Shown here: piece after piece, positions 6,838-27,747 of the stretch
Position numbering within the stretch: position 1 is the first letter of the stretch
Layout of the letters: every line of letters begins with the position of its first letter
Origin: Betaproteobacteria bacterium
Lineage (GTDB): Bacteria; Pseudomonadota; Gammaproteobacteria; Burkholderiales; SG8-39
Assembly: GCA_947478805.1 (NCBI GenBank)
Contig: CANJXQ010000008.1
Location: 538-64,537, forward strand
Direction: 5' to 3'
Length of the DNA stretch: 64,000 bases
Made by a program: the position numbers and the translations under genes
Notes under the pieces: generated by a model
What the model was told of the DNA's origin: nothing
What the model saw: the letters and a program-made list of their open reading frames with translations, nothing else
The model's database searches: none

Positions 6838-8274
6838 CTAATAGCGGTATGCATCCGGCTTGTAGGGCCCCTGTTTCTCCACGCCGATGTAACGCGCCTG
6901 CACGTCGGTCAGCTCGGTGAGCTTTGCATTGAGCTTCTTCAGCTGCAGGCGCGCCACCTTCTCGTCCAGGTGCTTGGGCAGCACATACACGCCGATTGGG
7001 TACTTGTCCGGGTTAAGGAACAGTTCAATCTGCGCGATGGTCTGGTTGGCAAAGGAAGAGCTCATCACATAGCTCGGGTGACCGGTGCCGCAACCCAGGT
7101 TCACCAGGCGTCCTTCGGCTAGCAGGATGATGCGCTTGCCCGCTTTGCCGTCCATCGGGGGGAAGATGACGTGATCGACCTGCGGCTTGATGTTTTCCCA
7201 TGTGTACTGCTTGAGCGCCGCGATGTCGATTTCGTTGTCGAAGTGGCCGATGTTGCAGACGATGGCCTGGTCCTTCATCTTCTTCATGTGCTCATGCGTG
7301 ATGACATGGAAGTTGCCGGTGGCCGACACGAAGATGTCGCCGTGTTCGGCGGCATAGTCCATGGTCACGACGCGATAGCCTTCCATGGCAGCCTGCAGCG
7401 CGCAGATCGGGTCGATTTCCGTCACCCACACCTGTGCGGACAGGGCGCGCAGCGCCTGGGCGGAGCCCTTTCCCACGTCACCGTAACCGCACACGACGGC
7501 AACCTTGCCGGCCACCATGACGTCGGTGGCGCGCTTGATGCCGTCCACCAGCGACTCACGGCAACCGTACAGGTTGTCGAACTTGGATTTGGTCACCGAA
7601 TCGTTGACATTGATGGCGGGGAACTTCAGCGCCCCGTCCTTGGCCATCTGGTACAGGCGCTTCACGCCGGTGGTGGTTTCCTCGGTAACGCCGCGGATCT
7701 TGGACAGCCGCGTCGAGTACCACTTCGCATCCTTGGCCAGCTTGGCCTTGATCGAGGCAAATAGCACGGTTTCCTCTTCGCTGCCGGGATGCTTGAGCAA
7801 GCTGGCGTCAGACTCGGCGCGCGCGCCCAGGTGCAGCAGCAGGGTTGCATCGCCGCCGTCGTCGAGGATCATGTTCGAATAACCCTTGTCAGGCCACTCG
7901 AATATGCGGTGGGTGTAGTCCCAGTATTGCTCGAGGGTTTCGCCCTTGATGGCGAACACGGCGGTGCCGTTCGCGGCAATCGCAGCGGCTGCGTGGTCCT
8001 GCGTCGAGTAGATGTTGCACGATGCCCAGCGGACTTCCGCCCCCAGTGCTTCCAGCGTTTCGATCAGCACGGCGGTCTGGATGGTCATGTGCAGGGAGCC
8101 CGTGATGCGGGCGCCGCGCAATGGCTGCTGGGAGGCGTATTCCTCGCGAATGGCCATGAGACCGGGCATTTCGGTCTCGGCGATGGCGATTTCCTTGCGG
8201 CCCCATGCGGCAAGGGCCAGGTCGGCGACTACGTGGTCGCCAGCAACTGCTTTGGATTTGAGTACGGCGCTCAT
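6838..8274 (-). CDS. ahcY: Adenosylhomocysteinase
   Basis: [60 protein letters not shown]. Confidence 0.97.
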
Positions 8275-8306
8275 TCTCGCGCCCTCCTTTCTTTCGAAAA
8301 AAGTGT

Positions 8307-8380
8307 GCGAGCGCCGTTGGATAGTTACCTCCCGAGCCTGGCGAACCTGTGAAGGTCCGTCGCAACGCTCCTCGGGAGAG
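8307..8380 (-). ncRNA. SAH riboswitch in the ahcY leader
   Basis: Minus strand reads CCGAGGAGCGTTGCGAC...GCCAGGCTCGG...CAACGGCGCTC, the hallmark SAH riboswitch segments, directly upstream of ahcY. Confidence 0.9.
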
Positions 8381-8502
8381 GCCGAATTTTAGCCTAAATC
8401 AGGCCTTGGAACTGCATGCACGGCGCCACAAATGAAATCGCCCGCGCATATGACCGGGCGACTGTAAAACTGAGTGCTTACTCGCGGGTTGCCCCGCGCC
8501 AC

Positions 8503-9687
8503 TCAGGCGGGGACTGTTTCGCGCTTGATTCCTGCATCAGCAGCCAGGGCCGATGCCTTATCCATGTTCTCCCACGTAAATTCCGGCTCGTCGCGGCCGA
8601 AATGGCCGTAGGAGGCGGTTTTCTCGTAGATCGGACGCAGCAGGTCGAGCATCTGGATGATGCCCTTGGGTCGCAGATCAAAGTGCTTTTGCACGATCTC
8701 GGACAGTTTCTCGTCGGAAACCTTGCCGGTGCCGAAAGTCGTGACCATGACACTGGTCGGCTTGGCAACGCCGATGGCATAGGACACCTGGATCTGGCAG
8801 CGGCTGGCGAGACCGGCGGCAACCACGTTCTTCGCGACATAGCGCGCCGCATAGGCTGCCGAGCGGTCCACCTTCGTCGGATCCTTGCCGGAGAAGGCGC
8901 CGCCGCCATGCGGGGCGGAGCCCCCATAGGTATCGACGATGATCTTGCGGCCCGTCAGGCCGCAATCGCCCTTGGGGCCGCCGATTTCGAATGCCCCCGT
9001 CGGATTCACGAGATAGTTGATCTTGCCCTTGACGAGGTTCTTCGGCAGCACGGGCTTGATGACCTGCTCGATGATGGCCTCTTCAATTTGCTTGTGCGTT
9101 ACACCGGGCCGATGTTGCGTCGACAGAACCACGGTATCGATGGCATCGGGCTTGCCATCCACGTAGCGAATCGTGACCTGCGACTTGGCATCCGGGCGCA
9201 ACCACGGCAGGCGCCCGTCGCGACGCAGCTCCGACTGGCGCTCCACCAGCCGATGCGACAACCAGATGGGAAGCGGCATGTACTGTGGCGTTTCATCGCA
9301 CGCATAGCCGAACATCAGGCCCTGGTCGCCAGCGCCCTGGTCGAGGTCGAGTCCCTTGCCTTCGTCCACGCCCTGGGCGATGTCCTGCGACTGTTCGCCG
9401 TAGGCAACGATGACGGTGCAGGTGTTGGTATCGAATCCGATGGCCGGGTCGGTGTAACCGATACGCTTGATGGTCCGGCGCGCGACGTCGTCGAAATTCA
9501 CCTTCGCACCGGTGGTGATTTCGCCCGCGAGCACGACGAGATTGTCCTTCACCAGCGTCTCGGCCGCGACTCGGGAGCGCTTGTCCTGGGCTAGAATCGC
9601 ATCAAGGATTGCGTCGGAAATTTGATCCGCAACCTTGTCCGGATGGCCTTCGGAGACGGACTCGGAAGTAAACAGGAAGCTCGACAT
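8503..9687 (-). CDS. metK: S-adenosylmethionine synthetase
   Basis: [42 protein letters not shown]. Confidence 0.97.
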
Positions 9688-15730: not shown

Positions 15731-16981
15731 ATGAACGAACAGGCGCCGGCGACGGGCGCTGGCAGCCACAAGCGCGGAGCAGGCCCGCAGCTCTTCCTCA
15801 AGCCGGCGCGAGAGCGCTCGCTGCGACGCCTGCATCCTTGGGTGTTCTCCGGTGCGATCGACCGCCTGGAGGGCGCAGCCGGATCCGGCGACACGGTGTG
15901 CGTGCGCGCCGCCGACGGGACCTTCCTGGCATGGGCGGCGTACAGTCCGGTATCGCAGATTCGCGCCCGCGTGTGGAGCTTTTCCGAAGCCGAGCGGCCC
16001 GATGAGAATCTGTTGCGCGCGCGGATTGCGGCGGCGATCGCTCGCCGCCAATCCGTCGCGGGTGACATGAACGCGCTGCGTCTAGTGCATGCGGAATCCG
16101 ACGCGTTGCCGGGCGTGGTTGCCGACAGATATGGCGACACGCTGGTCGTACAGCTGACTTCGGCCGGGGCCGAGCGCTGGCGTAATGTCATCGTCGAGAG
16201 CTTGCGCGAGGCCAGCGGGTGCAAGCTGCTGTTCGAGCGCTCCGATGGTGACGTGAGGGCACTGGAGGGGCTGGCCAGCCGCGTCGGCGTGCTGAACGGA
16301 GTGGCGCCAACCGTGGCAGAGACGAATCCCGATGCAATCGAGATCCGGGAGAATGGCATCCGCTATCTGGTTGATATCGGCGCAGGGCAGAAGACGGGGT
16401 TCTTCCTGGATCAGCGCGATAACCGTGCCAGCATTGCCGCCCTGGCGAGGGACCGCGAGGTGCTGAATTGCTTCTGTTATACGGGCGGGTTCACATTGTC
16501 TGCGCTGGCCGGCGGCGCCGCTTCGGTGCTGTCTGTGGACAGTTCTGCTCCGGCGCTCGCGCTGGCGCGGCGGAACTTGGCGCTGAACGCGCTGGATGCC
16601 GCGCGCAGCCATTGGGTGGAAGCTGATGTCTTTTCGATTCTGCGTGACCTGGGGCGCGAACGGCGGACATTTGACCTGATCATTCTCGATCCACCCAAGT
16701 TTGCGCCCACTTCGCGCGATGCGGAGCGCGCCGCACGGGGCTACAAGGACATCAACCTGAACGCCCTGAAATTGCTGCGCCCGGGCGGGTATTTGGCGAC
16801 GTTTTCCTGCTCGAGCGGTGTCAGCGCGGATCTTTTCCAGAAAATCGTTGCCGGCGCGGCTGCTGACGCGGGGGCGTCGTGTGCCATCGAGCAACGTTTT
16901 CACGCTGCGGCCGACCACCCGGTCATGCTGGAATTTCCGGAGGGTGAGTACCTGAAGGGGCTGTTGCTCCGGAAGCGCTAG
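15731..16981 (+). CDS. rlmI: RlmI-like 23S rRNA m5C methyltransferase
   Basis: HPWVFSGAI PUA domain, GQKTGFFLDQRDNR, LNCFCYTGGF, IILDPPKF, FPEGEYLKG. Confidence 0.88.
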   Translation: MNEQAPATGAGSHKRGAGPQLFLKPARERSLRRLHPWVFSGAIDRLEGAAGSGDTVCVRAADGTFLAWAAYSPVSQIRARVWSFSEAERPDENLLRARIAAAIARRQSVAGDMNALRLVHAESDALPGVVADRYGDTLVVQLTSAGAERWRNVIVESLREASGCKLLFERSDGDVRALEGLASRVGVLNGVAPTVAETNPDAIEIRENGIRYLVDIGAGQKTGFFLDQRDNRASIAALARDREVLNCFCYTGGFTLSALAGGAASVLSVDSSAPALALARRNLALNALDAARSHWVEADVFSILRDLGRERRTFDLIILDPPKFAPTSRDAERAARGYKDINLNALKLLRPGGYLATFSCSSGVSADLFQKIVAGAAADAGASCAIEQRFHAAADHPVMLEFPEGEYLKGLLLRKR

Positions 16982-17211
16982 GCCAGAGGATGTTGGCGCT
17001 TTTCAGGCGGTCAAATAATCCGAGGGTGGCGTCAAAGCTCTGAGCGTGTTCTAATGCCGCCCTTTTGGGGAATCCCCTGGGCGGCCTGGCGACGAAGCAG
17101 GTTGCCTCCGGCGACGAACGATCGCCGAAGCGTGTGGCCGAAGCTTGTCGCCGAACTGCGACAAGTGAAAAGTGGACGCATTCCCTCGGTATCAGAAAAC
17201 GTTGAATGTAA

Positions 17212-18197
<986 letters not shown>

Positions 18198-18216
<19 letters not shown>

Positions 18217-18665
18217 CAAAGAAGTCCGATACGGTAGCCAAGAAAGTTGAGCCGGGAGCAAGCCTCACGGAGGCGGCACTTCGCAAGATGCCGGTGTCGC
18301 AGTACATGAACGAGCAGCAGCTGGCATTTTTTCGTGAAAAGCTCATCGCCATGCGCAATGAGCTCCTCGAAAATGCCGGTAGCACCTCCGAGCACCTGCG
18401 CGAACATACCGCCGAGCCCGATCCCGCCGACCAGGCGACGATCGAGGAGGAAAATGCGCTGGAATTGCGCGCGCGCGATCGCGAGCGCAAGCTCCTGAAG
18501 AAGATCGAGGAAGCGCTGCGCCGCATCGATGACGAGTCCTATGGCTTCTGCGAGGAGACTGGCGACCCCATCGGCATACCTCGCCTCCTGGCGCGCCCGA
18601 CGGCCACGTTGACCATCGACGCCCAGACGCGTCGTGAGCAGCGACAGAAGCTGTACGGCGACTGA
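18198..18665 (+). CDS. dksA: RNA polymerase-binding factor DksA (single-Cys type)
   Basis: DPADQA coiled-coil tip, RDRERKLLKKI, YGFCEETGDPIGIPRLLARPTA. Confidence 0.93.
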
Positions 18666-18711
18666 TCCGATCGCGGCTTCGGGACCTGGAGTTACCGAAA
18701 ACCGCCCGCGC

Positions 18712-19047
18712 ATGAAACGCCTGCGCCACTTGCTCAGCCTGGTCCTGGCCGCAGCCCTCATTGCGGGGCAGTGGGCGGGCCAGTTGCATGCGTTGTCCCA
18801 CGCCGAGTACGACCTTGCCATTGCAGGCCAGGCCAAGACTGGCGGCGACAGTCCCGCGCCGCTGGACCATGCACGCGACCGCTGTGTGGCATTCCATGCG
18901 GTCGACTGCGCGCTGAGCGCGCCACCACTGGCGTTTGTCGGTACCGATCCTGCCGTCACGCTGGTCATCCAGCCCGGACTGCCGCTGCGGGCGGCCAAGC
19001 ACACCGCCTATTCCTCCCGCGCCCCACCTGTTCTCCACGTGAGCTGA
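18712..19047 (+). CDS. Small His-rich, DUF2946-like leader protein ending in an RAPP motif
   Basis: Signal/TM-like N-terminus (MKRLRHLLSLVLAAALIAG), HALSH, HARDRCVAFHAVDC, C-terminal YSSRAPPVLHVS. Confidence 0.75.
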   Translation: MKRLRHLLSLVLAAALIAGQWAGQLHALSHAEYDLAIAGQAKTGGDSPAPLDHARDRCVAFHAVDCALSAPPLAFVGTDPAVTLVIQPGLPLRAAKHTAYSSRAPPVLHVS

Positions 19048-19125
19048 ACCGCACTGCGGCATCGCACGATGCCGCGTCGTTCGCGAGCGCGCATTGCGCT
19101 CGCATGCCACGCATGGAGAGCCATC

Positions 19126-20565
19126 ATGTTTCGATCCAGCAATCGGGCGCCGGCCATTGCCGCGCTGACCGCAAGCCTGTTTTTCTCTATGGCGCAAGAC
19201 GCCTGCGCCGCCAGCGACGACGACCTGAAAGAACTGCGTGAGCAGGTCCGACAGTTGAAGGACCTCTACGAAAAAAAGATCAACGAACTGGAAGCCCGGC
19301 TGAAGCAGGCAGAACAGACCGCTGGTCAGGCCAAGTCTTCCGCGACTGCCGCGCAAACAACGGCCGAACAGGCTGCGGTGCAGGCGAGCAGCCGCACTGC
19401 CGGCGAGGGCGCATTCAACCCCGGCATCTCGGCAATCCTTAATGGCGTCTACGGCAACTTGTCGCAGAACCCCTCCAATTACCGCATCAACGGGTTTGCG
19501 CCAACGATGGGCGAAGTTGCGCCACCCAATCGCGGCCTGGGCCTGGGTGAGTCCGAAATCGCCTTCTCGGCCAACATCGATCGCCACTTTCGCGGCACCC
19601 TGATCGCCGCGCTGTCGCCCGAGGATACCGTCAGCGTCGAGGAGGCACACATCCAGACGCTGGGGCTGTCCAATGGATTCACGCTCAAGGCGGGCCGATT
19701 CTTTTCCGGGGTCGGCTATCACAACGAGATTCACGCTCACGCGTGGGACTTCACTGATGCGCCGCTGGCCAACAAGGTATTCCTCGGCAACCAACTGGCT
19801 GAAGACGGCTTCCAGGTCAAGTGGATCGCGCCCACCGACCTGTATGCCAACATCGGATTGGAGTTCGGGCGTGGCCGCAAGTTTCCGGGCGGGCCGGATG
19901 GCGGGCGCATGAAGAACGGCTTCGGTTCGACCAACCTGTTTGCCCACCTGGGCGGTGATTGGGGGACGGGTGCTGCATGGCGGGTGGGACTCTCCCACTT
20001 GCGCACCCGGGTGCACGACCGCGCGTTCAACGATGTCGATTCGACGGGGACCGGTGTGACCAATACCATCGGCGCTGCGAGCCGCCTTTGGGTCCTTGAC
20101 GGCGTGCTGAAATGGGCGCCCAACGGCAATGCGTCCAACACCAGTTTCAAGCTGCAGGGCGAATACTTCCGTCGCACCGAAGACGGGCAGCTGAGTTATG
20201 ACACGACAGCGGCGTCGCTGGGAACGCAGTCCGGTTCCTACCTGTCGAAGCAATCCGGCTGGTATCTGCAGGGCGTTTACCAGTTTCAGCCAGAGTGGCG
20301 CGTGGGTTATCGCTACGACCGGCTCGATTCCGGCACAACCGGCCTCGGACTGGTGGCCAATGGCCCGCTCACAGCTGCAGATTTTCCGATTCTGGCCAGC
20401 TACAAGCCGATACGGAACACCATGATGCTCGACTGGAGCGCCAGCGAATTCAGCCGTGTCAGGCTGCAGTTCGCCCGCGACCGGGCGCGTGCGGGGATCG
20501 CGGACAACCAGTTCTTCCTCCAATACATCATCAGCATGGGCGCGCATGGCGGCCACAAGTTCTGA
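19126..20565 (+). CDS. Outer-membrane beta-barrel/porin of a metal-uptake cassette
   Basis: Signal peptide, N-terminal coiled coil, amphipathic strands, HAHAWDF, C-terminal GAHGGHKF with terminal Phe; SD GGAGAG upstream. Confidence 0.75.
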   Translation: MFRSSNRAPAIAALTASLFFSMAQDACAASDDDLKELREQVRQLKDLYEKKINELEARLKQAEQTAGQAKSSATAAQTTAEQAAVQASSRTAGEGAFNPGISAILNGVYGNLSQNPSNYRINGFAPTMGEVAPPNRGLGLGESEIAFSANIDRHFRGTLIAALSPEDTVSVEEAHIQTLGLSNGFTLKAGRFFSGVGYHNEIHAHAWDFTDAPLANKVFLGNQLAEDGFQVKWIAPTDLYANIGLEFGRGRKFPGGPDGGRMKNGFGSTNLFAHLGGDWGTGAAWRVGLSHLRTRVHDRAFNDVDSTGTGVTNTIGAASRLWVLDGVLKWAPNGNASNTSFKLQGEYFRRTEDGQLSYDTTAASLGTQSGSYLSKQSGWYLQGVYQFQPEWRVGYRYDRLDSGTTGLGLVANGPLTAADFPILASYKPIRNTMMLDWSASEFSRVRLQFARDRARAGIADNQFFLQYIISMGAHGGHKF

Positions 20566-20575
20566 GGAGCAGACC

Positions 20576-21499
20576 ATGAAAAAAATATTCATCGTGATGG
20601 CAGGAACCCTGGCCGCAATGATGGCGGCGGCCTCGGCTGGCGCGGCGATCAATGTGTTTGCCTGCGAGCCCGAATGGGCCGCACTGGCGCAGGAAATCGG
20701 CGGTGACCGGGTCAACACAACTTCCGCGACCACGGCGCTGCAGGACCCGCATCGCGTCGAGGCGCGACCAAGCCTGATTGCGCGCGTGCGCAATGCCGAT
20801 CTTGTTGTCTGCACGGGAGCGGAACTGGAGATCGGCTGGCTGCCTCTGCTGCTGAACCAGTCGGGCAATGCCAAGGTGCAGCCTGGCAGGCCGGGAAATT
20901 TCGAGGCGGCGCAGTATGTGTCTCGTCTTGAAATACCAAAAGTGCTCGATCGTGCGCTGGGCGACATCCATCCGGGGGGCAATCCGCATATCCAGACCGA
21001 TCCGCGCAACATCGCCAAGGTGGCCGAGGCGCTGATTGCTCGGCTCGCACAAATCGATGCCCCGGGTGCCGAGTCCTATCGTTCCCGCGGCAAGGCTTTT
21101 CTCGAGCGCTGGCAGGCAGCCATCGTGCGTTGGGAGCAGCAGGCCGCACCGCTCCGGGGCCTCCCGGTGGTGGTGCATCACAAGGCCTGGACCTATCTCG
21201 AAGCGTGGCTCGGCCTGAGGGAGGTCGCCACGCTCGAGCATCAGCCCGGCGTTCCTCCCACCCCGTCCCACCTGGCCGAGTTGGTGGAGGGCATGCGCCG
21301 GGAGCCGGCAAAGTTCATTGTCTACTCTGCCTACAACGATCCGAAAGCGGCGGGTTTCCTGTCGCAGCGCACGGGTGTGCCTGCGGTGCTGCTGCCGTTC
21401 ACGGTTGGCGGAACGGAGGGCGCCCGGGACCTGTTCAGCTTGTTCGATGACACGCTGTCCCGGCTGCTATCCGCCGCGCAGGGCAAGGGCTCCAAATGA
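20576..21499 (+). CDS. Zn/Mn ABC-type substrate-binding protein (ZnuA family)
   Basis: Signal peptide, QDPH, GAELEIGWL, HPGGNPH, VVHH, EHQPGVPPT; SD GAGGAG. Confidence 0.9.
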   Translation: MKKIFIVMAGTLAAMMAAASAGAAINVFACEPEWAALAQEIGGDRVNTTSATTALQDPHRVEARPSLIARVRNADLVVCTGAELEIGWLPLLLNQSGNAKVQPGRPGNFEAAQYVSRLEIPKVLDRALGDIHPGGNPHIQTDPRNIAKVAEALIARLAQIDAPGAESYRSRGKAFLERWQAAIVRWEQQAAPLRGLPVVVHHKAWTYLEAWLGLREVATLEHQPGVPPTPSHLAELVEGMRREPAKFIVYSAYNDPKAAGFLSQRTGVPAVLLPFTVGGTEGARDLFSLFDDTLSRLLSAAQGKGSK

Positions 21500-22251
21500 A
21501 CTTCGATTCGGCGAGCCTGGCTATTTTGTTGCCCGCGTTGGCAGCTGGACTGCTGGTGACCCTGGCGCTGGTGCCGCTCGGGCTGCAGGTCTTGTCGCGC
21601 GGCATCGTGTTCATCGACTTGGCCGTCGCCCAGATTGCGGGTCTGGGTGTCATCGTCGCCGATGCGCTCGGATGGGAGCCGCAGGGGGTTGCGGTGCAAG
21701 TCGCTGCCTTGGCGGCGGCGCTGGCCGGAGCGCTGTTCCTCACTTGGACCGAACGCCGTTGGCCGGAGGTACAGGAGGCGATCATCGGCGTCGTTTTCGC
21801 GCTCGCGGCGAGTGTTGCGTTGCTCCTCCTAGCGGGAAATCCACATGGCGGCGAGCACCTGAAGGACCTCCTGGTGGGACAGATCCTGTGGGTGGATCCG
21901 ACGCGACTGGCGGTGGAGGCGATCGCCTATGTGGCGATCACGGCGATATGGTTTGCTTTTCGCGAGAGGCTGGGCCGCACCGGTTTTTACCTGCTGTTCG
22001 CATGCGCCGTGACGCTTTCCGTGCAGCAAGTCGGCCTTTACCTCGTGTTCGCGACCTTGATCGTTCCCGCGCTGGCGACCTACTACGCGGGATCGCGGCG
22101 CATCCTCAAGGCGTATGGGGTTGCCGCGGCTGGATATGCCTCGGGACTGTGGGCCTCGGCGTGGTTCGACCTGCCGTCAGGGGCGTTGATCGTCTGCACC
22201 ATGGCGGTGGCGGGCGTGCTATGGGCGTTGGCGCCGTCGCAAAGTCGCTAG
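21496..22251 (+). CDS. Metal ABC-type permease (ZnuB/ABC-3 family)
   Basis: RGIVFIDLAVAQIAGLG, EAIIG, LVFATLIVPA, DLPSGALIV; ATGA overlap with the binding-protein gene. Confidence 0.88.
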   Translation: MNFDSASLAILLPALAAGLLVTLALVPLGLQVLSRGIVFIDLAVAQIAGLGVIVADALGWEPQGVAVQVAALAAALAGALFLTWTERRWPEVQEAIIGVVFALAASVALLLLAGNPHGGEHLKDLLVGQILWVDPTRLAVEAIAYVAITAIWFAFRERLGRTGFYLLFACAVTLSVQQVGLYLVFATLIVPALATYYAGSRRILKAYGVAAAGYASGLWASAWFDLPSGALIVCTMAVAGVLWALAPSQSR

Positions 22252-22257
22252 GCCGCT

Positions 22258-22286
22258 CTTGAAATGGAATGACGGCGCCCCGATCT
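22258..22286 (+). promoter_or_regulatory. Sigma-32-type heat-shock promoter for hslVU
   Basis: CTTGAA-N14-CCCCGATCT, close to the CTTGAA...CCCCAT consensus. Confidence 0.65.
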
Positions 22287-22376
22287 CCGGGAAAATCCGC
22301 GCGTGATCGAATCATTTCCCCCGCCCCGATTGCCGTACCATTGGATCCCCCTTCATTTCCAACCGGACCTTTTGCA

Positions 22377-22913
22377 TTGGAACAATTTCACGGCACGACC
22401 ATTGTTTCCGCGCGCCGCGGCAACACAGTGGCCCTGGGTGGCGACGGTCAAGTCACACTTGGCAATATCGTCATCAAGGCCAGTGCGCGTAAAGTGCGGC
22501 GGATCCATCACGACAAGATCCTCGCCGGGTTCGCCGGCGGCACGGCAGACGCCTTCACGCTCTTCGAGCGCTTCGAAGCGAAGCTCGAAAAGCACCAGGG
22601 CAACCTGATGCGTTCCGCCGTGGAACTGGCCAAGGATTGGCGCACCGACCGCATCCTGCGTCGCCTGGAAGCCATGCTGGCGGTGGCCGATCGCGACGTG
22701 TCGTTGATCATTACCGGTCAGGGCGATGTGCTGGAACCCGAGTACGGGCTGATCGCCATCGGCTCGGGCGGGCCCTATGCCCAGGCGGCCGCCAAGGCGC
22801 TGCTGGACAATACCGACCTCGAGCCGCAGGTGATCGTCAAGAAAGCGCTGTCGATCGCGGCCGACCTGTGTATCTACACCAACCAGCATCACACCATCGA
22901 GGTGCTGGGCTGA
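22377..22913 (+). CDS. hslV: ATP-dependent protease subunit HslV
   Basis: [35 protein letters not shown]; TTG start inferred. Confidence 0.95.
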
Positions 22914-26367: not shown

Positions 26368-26694
26368 TCAGTAGGTGAGTCCCACGAACAGTACTGAGAG
26401 GGCGATGGCGAGCCGTCCCATGCCGCGCCAGAAGCCGCTACCAACATTGTGCGAACAGCGCCATGCCGACACCAGCCAGAACAGGCACAGCATGAACTTG
26501 AGCGTGTCGAGGATTGCGCCCCAGGCGTGCTCCTCGTCAAAACGGAAATCCTCCGCCGTGATGCCGAGCCAGGTTGCTGCAGCAATCACGGGGATGCCGG
26601 CCAGCCACCAGACCTGCCATAGCCGCGCTTCACCGTGAATTGCCCGGCGAATGAACTCCCTTGAGCCGCTGCGTTGAATACGTTGAATAATCAT
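26368..26694 (-). CDS. Small hypothetical membrane protein
   Basis: GEARLWQVWWLAG...WLVSAWRCSHNV...; three hydrophobic segments. Start uncertain. Confidence 0.6.
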   Translation of the reverse strand: MIIQRIQRSGSREFIRRAIHGEARLWQVWWLAGIPVIAAATWLGITAEDFRFDEEHAWGAILDTLKFMLCLFWLVSAWRCSHNVGSGFWRGMGRLAIALSVLFVGLTY

Positions 26695-26785
26695 GGTCGG
26701 TCGGAGCATATCGCAATCGCAGCGCCGCGGGCGCGCCGCCCCGCCAGTTTGCGACACCTGCGAGAGCTGTGTGAAAATCTGCGCC

Positions 26786-27166
26786 ATGCGCAACAAGGCC
26801 ATTTTGTCGCCACTTACTGCCTGGCTGGCGATCTTCGCCATGGCGCTCAATGCGCTGTGGCCGCTGATCGCCAATGCGCGCCCGGCGGGCGTTGCGTGGT
26901 CAATGGAGGTCTGCACCACCGAGGGCATGCGGTCAGTCTCGGGAGACCCAAACCGGGCGCCGGACGATTCGGTCGCCAAGTACCTGCAATCGCACTGTCC
27001 CCTGTGTTCTTTCGGGACCGACAAGCTCTGTGCCTTGCCCTCGGCGCCTTCGTTTCTTGAATCCGGTCAGACAGGCTGTGGCTCGACCGCAGAATTTCCA
27101 TCTGAGCTCCCCCGCAACGATATCCACTTTCCGGCGCACCCTCGCGCGCCGCCGGTCAATTCCTGA
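26786..27166 (+). CDS. DUF2946 family (CruR/CutF-like) leader protein
   Basis: TM/signal AWLAIFAMALNALWP, EVCTTEG, HCPLC, C-terminal HPRAPP. Confidence 0.85.
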   Translation: MRNKAILSPLTAWLAIFAMALNALWPLIANARPAGVAWSMEVCTTEGMRSVSGDPNRAPDDSVAKYLQSHCPLCSFGTDKLCALPSAPSFLESGQTGCGSTAEFPSELPRNDIHFPAHPRAPPVNS

Positions 27167-27255: not shown

Positions 27256-27747
27256 ATGATTTTCAAAGCAATGGCCTTTGCCACAGTAGTATTCACGACG
27301 TTCTCGGTGCAGGCCCACGATTACAAGGTGGGTGATCTGCAAATCGGTCACCCCTACTCCCGCACGACTCCGCCCGGCGCAACCACCGCCGGCGCGTACT
27401 TGAGCATCGACAACAAGGGCAAGGCCGCGGACAAGCTGTTGCGTGCTTCCAGCCCAGCGGCGGGACTGGTCGAGCTGCATTCCATGAGCATGGACGGCAA
27501 TGTCATGCGCATGCGCGCGGTGCCGGCAATCGATGTCGCGCCGGGAGCAACGGTCAAGCTTGCGCCCGGCGGACTGCATGTCATGTTGCAGGAACTCAAG
27601 CGCCCGCTCAAGAAGGACGAGCGCGTGCCACTGACGCTGGTGTTCCAGCGTGCCGGCGAAGTGAAGGTTGAACTGGCGGTGCAGGACGCCGTCGCTGCCG
27701 CGTCGGGGCACGACGCGCATGCGGGGCACGGCACGGACAAGAAATAG
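27256..27747 (+). CDS. Periplasmic copper chaperone PCu(A)C
   Basis: Signal peptide, HPYSRTTPPG, ELHSM...VMRMR, LAPGGLHVML, His-rich tail. Confidence 0.92.
   Translation: MIFKAMAFATVVFTTFSVQAHDYKVGDLQIGHPYSRTTPPGATTAGAYLSIDNKGKAADKLLRASSPAAGLVELHSMSMDGNVMRMRAVPAIDVAPGATVKLAPGGLHVMLQELKRPLKKDERVPLTLVFQRAGEVKVELAVQDAVAAASGHDAHAGHGTDKK

Follow-up and report, generated by a model that had tools for sequence, protein, structure and literature searches.

A 64,000-nucleotide (nt) stretch from the genome of a Betaproteobacteria bacterium (assembly GCA_947478805.1, contig CANJXQ010000008.1, positions 538 to 64,537; hereafter the window) contains a small upstream open reading frame (uORF) placed ahead of a porin gene, and its predicted peptide ends ...SSRAPPVLHVS, with an Arg-Ala-Pro-Pro (RAPP) motif at residues 103-106 of 111. 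The best explanation for this arrangement is, in our view, that the uORF is a RAPP-type regulatory leader, that its last codons serve as an anti-Shine-Dalgarno (anti-SD) strand, that ribosome arrest on it controls a switch at the ribosome-binding site (RBS) of the porin gene, and that zinc is the likely signal. We assign this reading a probability of about 0.72. The elements on which it is built are the following:

18712..19047, + strand: uORF (leader gene), 111 amino acids, from translation; conserved 5' of the porin gene
18787..18801, + strand: HxxxH codons (H26..H30), candidate metal ligands; H26 is invariant and H30 kept in at least 90% of the aligned family members
18868..18906, + strand: H53..C58..D65 codons (DHxxDxCxAFHAxD), second candidate ligand cluster; the C58 codon is 18883-18885, and C58 is invariant in the same alignment
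19018..19029, + strand: RAPP codons CGC GCC CCA CCT, from the sequence, presumed site of arrest, where, by analogy with the leader peptide CruR, Pro105 and Pro106 would occupy the P and A sites, respectively
19030..19041, + strand: anti-SD strand, consisting of codons V107-V110 of the tail; 5' half of the closing helix (RNAfold)
19045..19047, + strand: uORF stop codon TGA, from the sequence
19056..19075, + strand: internal hairpin 1, 8 bp, loop GCAC (sequence and RNAfold)
19083..19103, + strand: internal hairpin 2, 8 bp, loop GCATT (sequence and RNAfold)
19110..19121, + strand: 3' strand of the closing helix, containing the SD at 19115-19120 (sequence and RNAfold)
19115..19120, + strand: Shine-Dalgarno sequence (SD) of the porin gene, GGAGAG, 5 nt before the ATG at 19126
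19126..20565, + strand: porin gene, 479 amino acids, with signal peptide, N-terminal helix (residues 31-88) and beta-barrel (AlphaFold2 and Foldseek)

The core of the arrangement is a helix between the codons that follow RAPP and the porin SD. As stated in the original prediction, which was made from the letters of the sequence, GTTCTCCACGTG (19030-19041) pairs with CGCATGGAGAGC (19110-19121) at 11 of 12 positions and covers GGAGAG, with G-U pairs at 19031-19120 and 19040-19111 and a C-A mismatch at 19038-19113, and the enclosed region holds two perfect 8-bp hairpins (19056-63/19068-75 and 19083-90/19096-103). RNAfold of 19000-19145 returned a three-way structure of -54.7 kcal/mol, composed of this closing helix and the two hairpins. 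The closing helix, and with it a paired SD, is found in the minimum free energy (MFE) structure and in the centroid; in the MFE it begins exactly at 19030, directly behind the RAPP codons, as that prediction had it. The register differs in one detail from the one then proposed: in the MFE, the inner bases 19038-41 pair with 19108-11 across a 2-nt bulge, whereas both registers share the 8 bp that cover the SD (19030-37 with 19114-21). None of 200 dinucleotide shuffles of 19000-19145 was as stable (mean -43.1 kcal/mol, standard deviation 3.8, z -3.08), and the same result was obtained for 19030-19121 folded alone (-52.1 kcal/mol, z -4.49, 0/200). Rfam gave no match for 18600-19300 at E values up to 1, and no intrinsic terminator was found in the spacer by scanning, with no U-run after hairpin 1. 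Both hairpin sequences are unique in the window (allowing up to three mismatches) and, as they recur nowhere else in it, a dispersed repeat was rejected as their origin.

The arrangement was followed in two sets of relatives. The porin is present in 21 of 41 related genomes (the window's own counted), which returned 23 loci; in 16 of these a uORF ending in R[AG]PP plus 3-6 codons lies 65-150 nt ahead of the porin start, six loci end at a contig edge upstream, and in one (L010, the same place as L030) the uORF ends SQGPPAVL. A scan with one genome per species gave 583 porin relatives, and 80 loci of these were examined, with porin start codons set by a heuristic; all are from Betaproteobacteria or organisms labelled as close to them, several of them cultured strains. 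A uORF was observed in 75 of the 77 loci with upstream DNA (74 by pattern search, plus L076, where it ends SSRDPPSLL) and was not seen in L092 and L104, while three of the 80 loci had no upstream DNA. Cultured carriers include Propionivibrio dicarboxylicus DSM 5885, Rhizobacter sp. Root1238, Duganella sp. BJB476, Novimethylophilus kurashikiensis and Sulfuriferula sp. GW1. The results given below for 88 loci refer to unique loci, after removal of one duplicate and exclusion of L102, in which the porin start was mis-assigned. The region 18600-19700 itself was found in 20 DNA sequencing runs of freshwater, lake and river metagenomes belonging to 11 studies; no RNA run was among the runs listed. 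One genome (G027) carries two tandem uORF-porin-znuA units.

When the initial set of 16 loci was folded from the first post-motif base to ATG+15, approximately the first 10 bases closed on the SD in 16 of 16 MFE structures, a count biased by the 5' boundary of the folded segment itself; when 120 nt of upstream sequence were included, the SD core paired with positions +1 to +15 with a mean probability of 0.62, exceeding 0.5 in 11 of the 16. The 88 loci were folded from the P-site codon to ATG+40, and at least 4 bp were required to join the RBS window to the initial 22 nt. Such a helix between ribosome footprint and RBS is present in the MFE structure of 82 loci, or 79 when post-motif bases only are used. 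When the 5' boundary was shifted by -90, -60, -45 or -30 nt, it was found in 4, 3, 2 and 4 of 88 loci, respectively, and in 8 of 69 for a shift of +22, against 82 of 87 in place. The first paired nucleotide lies between -5 and +5 from the first post-motif base in 78 of 83 loci and the helix has a median length of 12 bp; it encloses one hairpin in 57 of these 83 loci, two in 19, three in 5 and four in 2. Considering the approximately 354 windows available per locus, the best 12-nt complement of the RBS starts at -6 to +6 in 48 of 88 loci, where 3.7% would be expected by chance, and at -12 to -7 in another 10.

The two strands also change together. The duplex between the anti-SD (16 nt post-motif) and the RBS of the same locus has a mean energy of -13.16 kcal/mol, versus -8.25 kcal/mol (standard deviation 0.27) for pairs taken across loci and -7.12 kcal/mol for shuffled anti-SD strands; own pairs are 4.9 kcal/mol better and none of 5000 permutations was as low, figures that overstate the significance, as related sequences are not independent. 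There are 81 distinct post-motif 9-mers among the 88 loci, and the complementary pairs are as different as GUUCCU/AGGAAC (L007), UUCCUCG/CGAGGAG (L012) and GACACCCUG/AGGGUGUC (L015). That so many different complementary pairs occur speaks for selection on the pairing itself. By the shift control and the permutation test, the presence of the anti-SD strand inside the footprint of a ribosome at RAPP, another element of the original prediction, is conserved and covarying over the 88 loci. It could be argued that the pairing is incidental, a product of a GC-rich and structured spacer behind an ordinary small periplasmic protein: the genome is GC-rich, intergenic hairpins are common, and a function of the mature peptide is possible. 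This explanation is highly improbable in view of the specificity of position (82/87 in place against 2-4/88 for the upstream shifts and 8/69 at +22), of the covariation (0/5000) and of the stability relative to shuffled sequences.

A ribosome covers approximately 15 nt 3' of its P site. We masked this footprint and computed the cost of opening ATG-13 to ATG+2: the opening energy of the RBS fell from 12.0 to 5.3 kcal/mol in the window, from a mean of 11.7 to 6.3 kcal/mol in the 16 loci and from a mean of 10.9 to 5.6 kcal/mol in the 88 loci, with a median change of 5.2 kcal/mol. The change was at least 3 kcal/mol in 64 and at least 2 kcal/mol in 77 of the 88. The switch is one of changed masking strength and not a passage from a paired to a naked RBS.

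Arrest could also act on transcription. In CruR-type attenuation, taken as the main mechanism, the arrested ribosome would keep Rho off the C-rich, G-poor end of the uORF and its release would lead to termination before or within the porin gene, SD masking being secondary or operating through the untranslated porin mRNA, which would be open to Rho. This is the mechanism published for CruR (PMC9426467), and all 88 loci have a pyrimidine-rich zone with more C than G centred -15 to 0 from the motif end (mean C-G +0.29 per nt, 30-nt windows); the window has 27 C versus 13 G over a stretch of 57 nt that extends to 12 nt past the motif. However, this skew is largely due to the RAPP codons and the CUCC anti-SD themselves, the intergenic region is short (median 69 nt, and 78 nt here, versus 162 nt in cruR) and tightly folded, and attenuation leaves unexplained both the RBS as constant partner of the post-RAPP bases and the covariation. 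We consider it unlikely as the main mechanism, although Rho attenuation and SD masking are compatible and not exclusive.

The leader peptide is composed, in this order, of MKRLRH and a hydrophobic stretch, H26xxxH30, D52-H53-x2-D56-x-C58, an unstructured linker, R103-A-P-P106 and the tail VLHVS. In an alignment of 25 uORF peptides, H26, C58, P105 and P106 are invariant, H30, R103 and A104 are nearly so, and the part between the Cys and RAPP has no gaps. The N-terminus, judged by inspection only, combines the basic MKRLRH with a hydrophobic stretch of 13 residues and is conserved in this alignment. Over the 88 loci, the motif is RAPP in 72, RGPP in 13, QGPP in 2 and LPPP in 1 (a doubtful case), that is, RAPP or RGPP in 85; HxxxH is present in 84, and a Cys lies 44-46 residues ahead of the motif in 79 (44 in the window's peptide), of which 60 have two Cys, the nearer one at 44-46, and 19 have a single Cys at 44 or 46. 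Six of the remaining loci have a single Cys at 47 and three have none. In the 85 loci with a Cys, it is the second of a CxxC in 60, part of HxxxxC in 15 (the window's clade, with DHxxDxC) and in another context in 10. The post-motif tail has three codons in 65 of 88 loci and five in the window. The candidate ligand set would be His2Cys2, or His3Cys in the window's clade, which suits Zn(II). In the AlphaFold2 model of the peptide (predicted local distance difference test, pLDDT, 71; predicted template modelling score, pTM, 0.46), the hydrophobic segment and HxxxH lie in a helix at 2-43, C58 is followed by a short helix at 59-68, and residues 69-111 are modelled as coil, which is about the length of chain that would be held in the exit tunnel at arrest.

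These features bear on a simpler possibility, that of plain translational coupling, in which any ribosome passing through the uORF end would enable porin synthesis, RAPP would only prolong its dwell and no metal would be involved. Sequestration of an SD by the end of an upstream reading frame is a common design of coupling, and a ribosome terminating at 19042-19047 would also melt the helix. Coupling neither needs nor explains the invariance of H26 and C58, HxxxH in 84 of 88 loci, the 44-46 spacing and the signal-like N-terminus, nor does it account for RAPP or RGPP being kept in 85 of 88; we regard it as quite improbable.

The family to which the peptide belongs is large, with 3089 clusters (50% identity) at E values of 0.001 or lower and 481 at 1e-10 or lower, and one member in the window's genome. 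The window's peptide has no match in Pfam or NCBIfam and does not match PF11162 (DUF2946), the family of CruR, even at E values up to 10. PF11162 weakly matches 11 of the 25 aligned members (best E value 1.6e-4), and hhalign of their alignment against an alignment of 15 canonical DUF2946 proteins joined the last 12 columns only, with a probability of 9.8%; the assignment of the uORF family to DUF2946 was rejected on these weak partial and tail-only matches. The window's peptide has H53-x4-C58 and no CXXC of the PF11162 type. In four loci, QGPP (L047, L096 and L030) or RDPP (L076) replaces RAPP/RGPP at the same place and with the same tail length, and such variants could reveal which residues are needed for arrest.

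The genes around the leader and the porin are:

17212..18216, + strand: COG0523 (CobW/ZigA-like) GTPase (PF02492 at 1.5e-57)
18198..18665, + strand: DksA paralogue, DksA2-like, with one Cys at the place of the C4 zinc finger (PF21157 at 1e-27, TIGR02420 at 1e-42)
20576..21499, + strand: ZnuA-family periplasmic metal-binding protein (PF01297 at 7e-43)
21496..22251, + strand: ATP-binding cassette type 3 (ABC-3) permease, ZnuB/AztB-like (PF00950 at 4e-22; AztB at 1e-11)
from 22269: hslV, then hslU, next after the permease gene

Against NCBIfam, the GTPase is closest to PRK11537 (1e-99) and ZigA (3e-56), both under the cut-off, and the best match of the ZnuA-family protein, also under the cut-off, is AztC (7e-20). 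Canonical DksA has a zinc finger of C4 pattern, of which the window's paralogue keeps one of four Cys, as counted on the translation; DksA2 of Pseudomonas, a zinc-independent DksA, is comparable. The order uORF-porin-znuA-znuB was observed in 14 of 14 larger loci, from 14 genomes, that we used for counts of gene order (uORFs identified by their motif), and upstream there is a GTPase gene in 7 and a DksA paralogue in 5 of them. In a locus of the same genus (L025), the order is zupT-zur-cobW-dksA-uORF-porin-znuA-znuB: the genes for a His-rich ZIP transporter (8567-9340, - strand; PF02535 at 7e-39) and for a Fur-family protein with a Zur-like end, ...HFQCSDCGKV...CPQCG (8095-8565, - strand; PF01475 at 1e-10), stand immediately 5' of the GTPase gene. 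Judged by family assignment, the surroundings are those of zinc starvation and zinc import and not of copper genes, as indicated by the GTPase, the DksA paralogue and ZnuA/ZnuB, together with the Fur-family and ZIP genes of L025. Given this gene context and the ligand pattern of the peptide, zinc is favoured as the signal. Since znuA has its own SD, GAGGAG, which overlaps the porin stop codon, the leader may gate the porin alone while Zur rules the cluster.

We infer the arrest, the metal and the direction of the response as follows. By analogy with CruR, ApdA and ApdP, a ribosome translating the uORF would arrest once the codons of Pro105 and Pro106 (19024-19029) have entered the P and A sites, respectively. 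Its mRNA channel would cover approximately 19030-19039 and block the closing helix 19030-41/19110-21, leaving, as computed, the SD and the ATG accessible, and the porin would be translated for as long as the arrest lasts. Once arrest is relieved, five more codons would be read, termination would occur at 19045, the three-way structure would form again with the SD buried, and porin translation would be turned off; Rho may additionally terminate transcription in the untranslated porin gene. Zinc would bind the nascent peptide, part of it already exported, with H26/H30 and C58 as ligands and a fourth one that differs between clades (C55 where CxxC is present, H53 in the window's clade). The fixed spacing of 44-46 residues between Cys and RAPP would place the ligand helix just past the exit tunnel or the translocon at arrest, where compaction upon metal binding could exert a pull on the chain and end the arrest. 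In this scheme Zur would report cytoplasmic zinc at the level of transcription, whereas the leader would gate the outer-membrane porin post-transcriptionally. The SecM-like design put forward in the original prediction, an arrest-controlled switch at the RBS, is supported, and the best-supported reading is a switch of the SecM/CutF kind, given the conserved and covarying anti-SD and the precedents of CutF and CruR.

As for the direction of the response, relief of arrest by the metal, which turns uptake off as in CruR, is favoured because of physiology and of that precedent. The opposite polarity would follow the published model of CutF (PMC9973294; bioRxiv 10.1101/2025.02.05.636593): metal bound to the exported part would hold the nascent chain, stalling would be longer and the porin would be switched on. 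H26/H30 come right after the hydrophobic segment and C58 would be near the translocon at arrest, and a metal bridge there may hinder export as easily as pull. Against this stands that the genes are for uptake and lie beside genes of zinc starvation, where metal-induced uptake would be a positive feedback, which is a physiological argument only. We judge this polarity improbable, and relief of arrest by zinc remains our preferred reading.

Several observations weigh against the proposed switch, besides the dependence among related sequences that inflates the permutation test. The helix is absent in 6 of 88 loci, and in 5 of the 16 folded with upstream context (L004, L005, L014, L015 and L019) the SD favours other partners or another part of the RBS is paired; in 25 of 88 loci the best RBS complement is internal to the uORF, and in 5 of 88 it is located further 3'. 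The CCN CCN codons for Pro and a CUCC tail resemble an anti-SD through their composition, and this contributes to the positional signal. RNAalifold, applied to a MAFFT alignment of 85 motif-to-ATG regions, returned 0 consensus pairs, so that covariation in homologs was recovered by the permutation test and missed by this program; the alignment is gappy and the helix register varies by clade, for which reason per-locus folds and permutation tests were used, and we take the null result as a failure of the alignment, no standard covariation tool confirming the helix. The change in opening energy upon masking of the footprint stayed below 1 kcal/mol in 8 of the 88 loci, and the mean probability of the RBS being unpaired barely rose, from 0.39 to 0.48 in the 16 loci, and dropped from 0.51 to 0.44 in the window. 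This probability hardly moves because the freed RBS makes weak local pairs in the model; of the expected difference between folds with and without the anti-SD region, the strong lowering of the opening energy was found, while the unpaired probability stayed nearly flat. The ATG of the uORF has no obvious SD, as read from the sequence.

Other points against concern the metal and its control. The ZnuA-like protein falls below every NCBIfam cut-off and also resembles manganese binders. A generic palindrome representing the Zur box gave two poor matches, both in other parts of the window, a result reached by 14 of 100 shuffles; seven upstream regions of cobW aligned with the window's shared no box, and a promoter scan of 16900-20700 found none. 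The authors of the CruR study propose cytoplasmic sensing and no role for the signal peptide (PMC9426467), and in CutF stalling rises with metal (PMC9973294). These differences between CutF and CruR allow no confident transfer of either the compartment or the sign of the response.

The 479-residue protein downstream is, by its predicted fold, a porin, with signal peptide and beta-barrel. Its AlphaFold2 model (pLDDT 76.4, pTM 0.72) has 16 DSSP strand elements after residue 100, and Foldseek against the PDB gave 218 chains at E values of 0.001 or lower, the best being OmpT of V. cholerae (2.3e-12, template modelling score on the target 0.70), with chitoporin, OprO, Omp32, OmpF and DcaP as further matches. 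By sequence, there was no Pfam match, and a search of the PDB with the porin profile gave nothing below an E value of 0.35. At least 7650 relatives were found at E values of 1e-10 or lower, nearly all named hypothetical; among the neighbours in the ESM Atlas, some clusters are named "phosphate-selective porin O and P". The family has a long N-terminal helix before the barrel, as in DcaP. The N-terminus predicted from 19126 (MFRS..., signal-like) is the version common to the homologs, and the in-frame ATG at 19069 is within a hairpin and has no SD.

Some further features of the locus can be mentioned. The DksA paralogue and the GTPase gene ahead of it share 19 nt, and 46 nt separate the end of the paralogue from the uORF ATG. 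Behind the permease gene there is no ABC ATPase (ZnuC-like) gene (window 21496-22913); an ATPase was not sought elsewhere. hslV directly follows znuB in 10 of the 14 larger loci. Approximately 50 nt 5' of the GTPase gene, at 17144-17165, there is an inverted repeat, CTTGTCGC-N6-GCGACAAG, which is also present in the closest relative (L024), with one spacer base different, and was not seen in distant relatives; it could be an operator or a hairpin. Where L025 has the Fur-family and ZIP genes, the window's genome has a methyltransferase gene.

A second RAPP leader was identified in the window, a DUF2946 gene at 26693-27166 (+ strand; PF11162 at 9e-12) with RAPP codons at 27144-27155 and the tail VNS, followed by a gene for a PCu(A)C copper chaperone at 27256-27747 (+ strand; PF04314 at 3e-38), and the window's genome thus has leaders of copper type and of zinc type side by side. 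In the fold of this spacer, AUUCCU, right after RAPP, pairs with the chaperone SD AGGAAU, with an unremarkable stability (z -1.87, equalled by 11 of 200 shuffles). The best partner of the 16 post-RAPP nt within 450 nt downstream is the RBS of a long reading frame in at least 5 of 22 canonical DUF2946 loci (L124, L135, L140, L141 and L145); the search was blind and rough, made without gene calls. Since the same layout occurs in these 5 of 22 loci and in the window's DUF2946-PCuAC pair, SD masking may be a common output of RAPP/CruR-like leaders besides Rho.

We tentatively propose, giving it somewhat less than an even chance, that the leader is the first zinc-sensing nascent peptide, in which arrest would end, and the SD be buried again, upon binding of periplasmic Zn(II) to a His2Cys2 site (His3Cys in the window's clade), that it would establish a two-compartment control together with Zur, widespread in freshwater and soil Betaproteobacteria, and that the porin would be a dedicated zinc entry channel. 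If this were true, cytoplasmic zinc would set transcription of the cluster, periplasmic zinc would gate outer-membrane entry only, and an unannotated porin family would be identified as a dedicated channel for zinc. It would suggest a way for bacteria to sense periplasmic as well as cytoplasmic zinc. Switches with metal-responsive arrest peptides have been documented so far for copper only (CruR and CutF), and a zinc family would add a second metal; according to Roy et al., no riboswitch is known for Cu or Zn (PMC9426467). The zinc-linked family would give a testable role to an uncharacterised leader family and to a large unannotated porin family.

The arrangement can be compared with three described systems and one survey. 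In CutF-cutO of Rhodobacter capsulatus, a stem-loop shields the SD, and mutation of the anti-SD abolishes the need for cutF (Ozturk et al., mBio 2023, PMC9973294). The window resembles CutF, a leader with Sec signal, in a small leader with a signal-like N-terminus, a candidate metal-binding motif and a C-terminal proline stall motif, and in an intergenic stem-loop with an anti-SD over the SD of the next gene, proposed to be melted by stalling; it has both the SD-pairing stem-loop and an anti-SD within reach of a stalled ribosome. CutF, however, has CxxxC and PPP and responds to copper, whereas the window's family has HxxxH with CxxC or HxxxxC and RAPP. In CutF the metal switches on a detoxifying oxidase, while here a porin and then ZnuA/ZnuB follow, in zinc-starvation surroundings. 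A further difference from CutF is that here the codons at the end of the uORF itself, from the first post-RAPP base, form the anti-SD. The authors mention CutF-like clusters with other ligand sets and other neighbours (PMC9973294), and the word zinc is absent from the main text of that paper, whose supplementary lists may hold members of the family.

CruR (Bp2923, DUF2946) of Bordetella pertussis requires RAPP for downstream expression (Roy et al., mBio 2022, PMC9426467), and in its toeprint the P and A sites are occupied by the two Pro codons (PMC12992588). The likenesses are an exported-looking leader, RAPP a few residues before the C-terminus, a Cys motif approximately 45 residues ahead of RAPP with conserved spacing (44 here), and, in the scheme proposed for the window, control of an outer-membrane metal-uptake gene, in which presence of the metal would relieve arrest and turn uptake off. 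The differences are that CruR acts by Rho-dependent termination over a 162-nt spacer, with no SD-masking helix reported in that paper (PMC9426467), and that it senses copper via CXXC, heads its operon and targets a TonB-dependent transporter. The window's uORF is not the head of a copper operon, having the DksA paralogue and the GTPase before it and porin-ZnuA-ZnuB after it.

SecM-secA of E. coli and the RAPP peptides ApdA and ApdP (Sakiyama et al. 2021, PMC7897499; Morici et al. 2024, PMC10951233) share with the reading proposed for the window an arrest near the C-terminus of an exported leader that exposes the next RBS, with release thought to occur by pulling on the nascent chain, and the RAPP motif of ApdA/ApdP is identical to that of the window's peptide. 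Those peptides monitor Sec/YidC and are encoded upstream of sec or yidC, whereas a porin and a metal ABC importer lie downstream here, and, unlike in SecM/Apd, the conserved His and Cys point to a metal input. With respect to SecM itself, the downstream gene is a porin and only the R-A-x-P core of the motif is SecM-like.

The broader class is known from a survey in which RAPP/RGPP uORFs were over-represented 5' of genes for TonB-dependent receptors, YcnI, PCuAC and PepSY proteins (EMBO J 2025, PMC12992588), and the window's uORF has the motif of this class a few codons before its stop. The survey names copper-related classes, while the window's leader is zinc-linked; "zinc" is absent from its main text, in which 'porin' and 'ZnuA' were not searched, and its appendix may list these proteins. 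Our literature search found no paper tying such a leader to zinc or to a porin, although supplementary lists may hold these proteins. The kind of system is thus known, from CutF, CruR and the RAPP/RGPP survey, and the zinc-linked family looks new. What this family seems to add to the known kind is a leader without Pfam assignment, with HxxxH and CxxC or HxxxxC as candidate ligands, a porin-ZnuAB target, and an anti-SD built from the leader's own codons directly after RAPP, with covarying partners.

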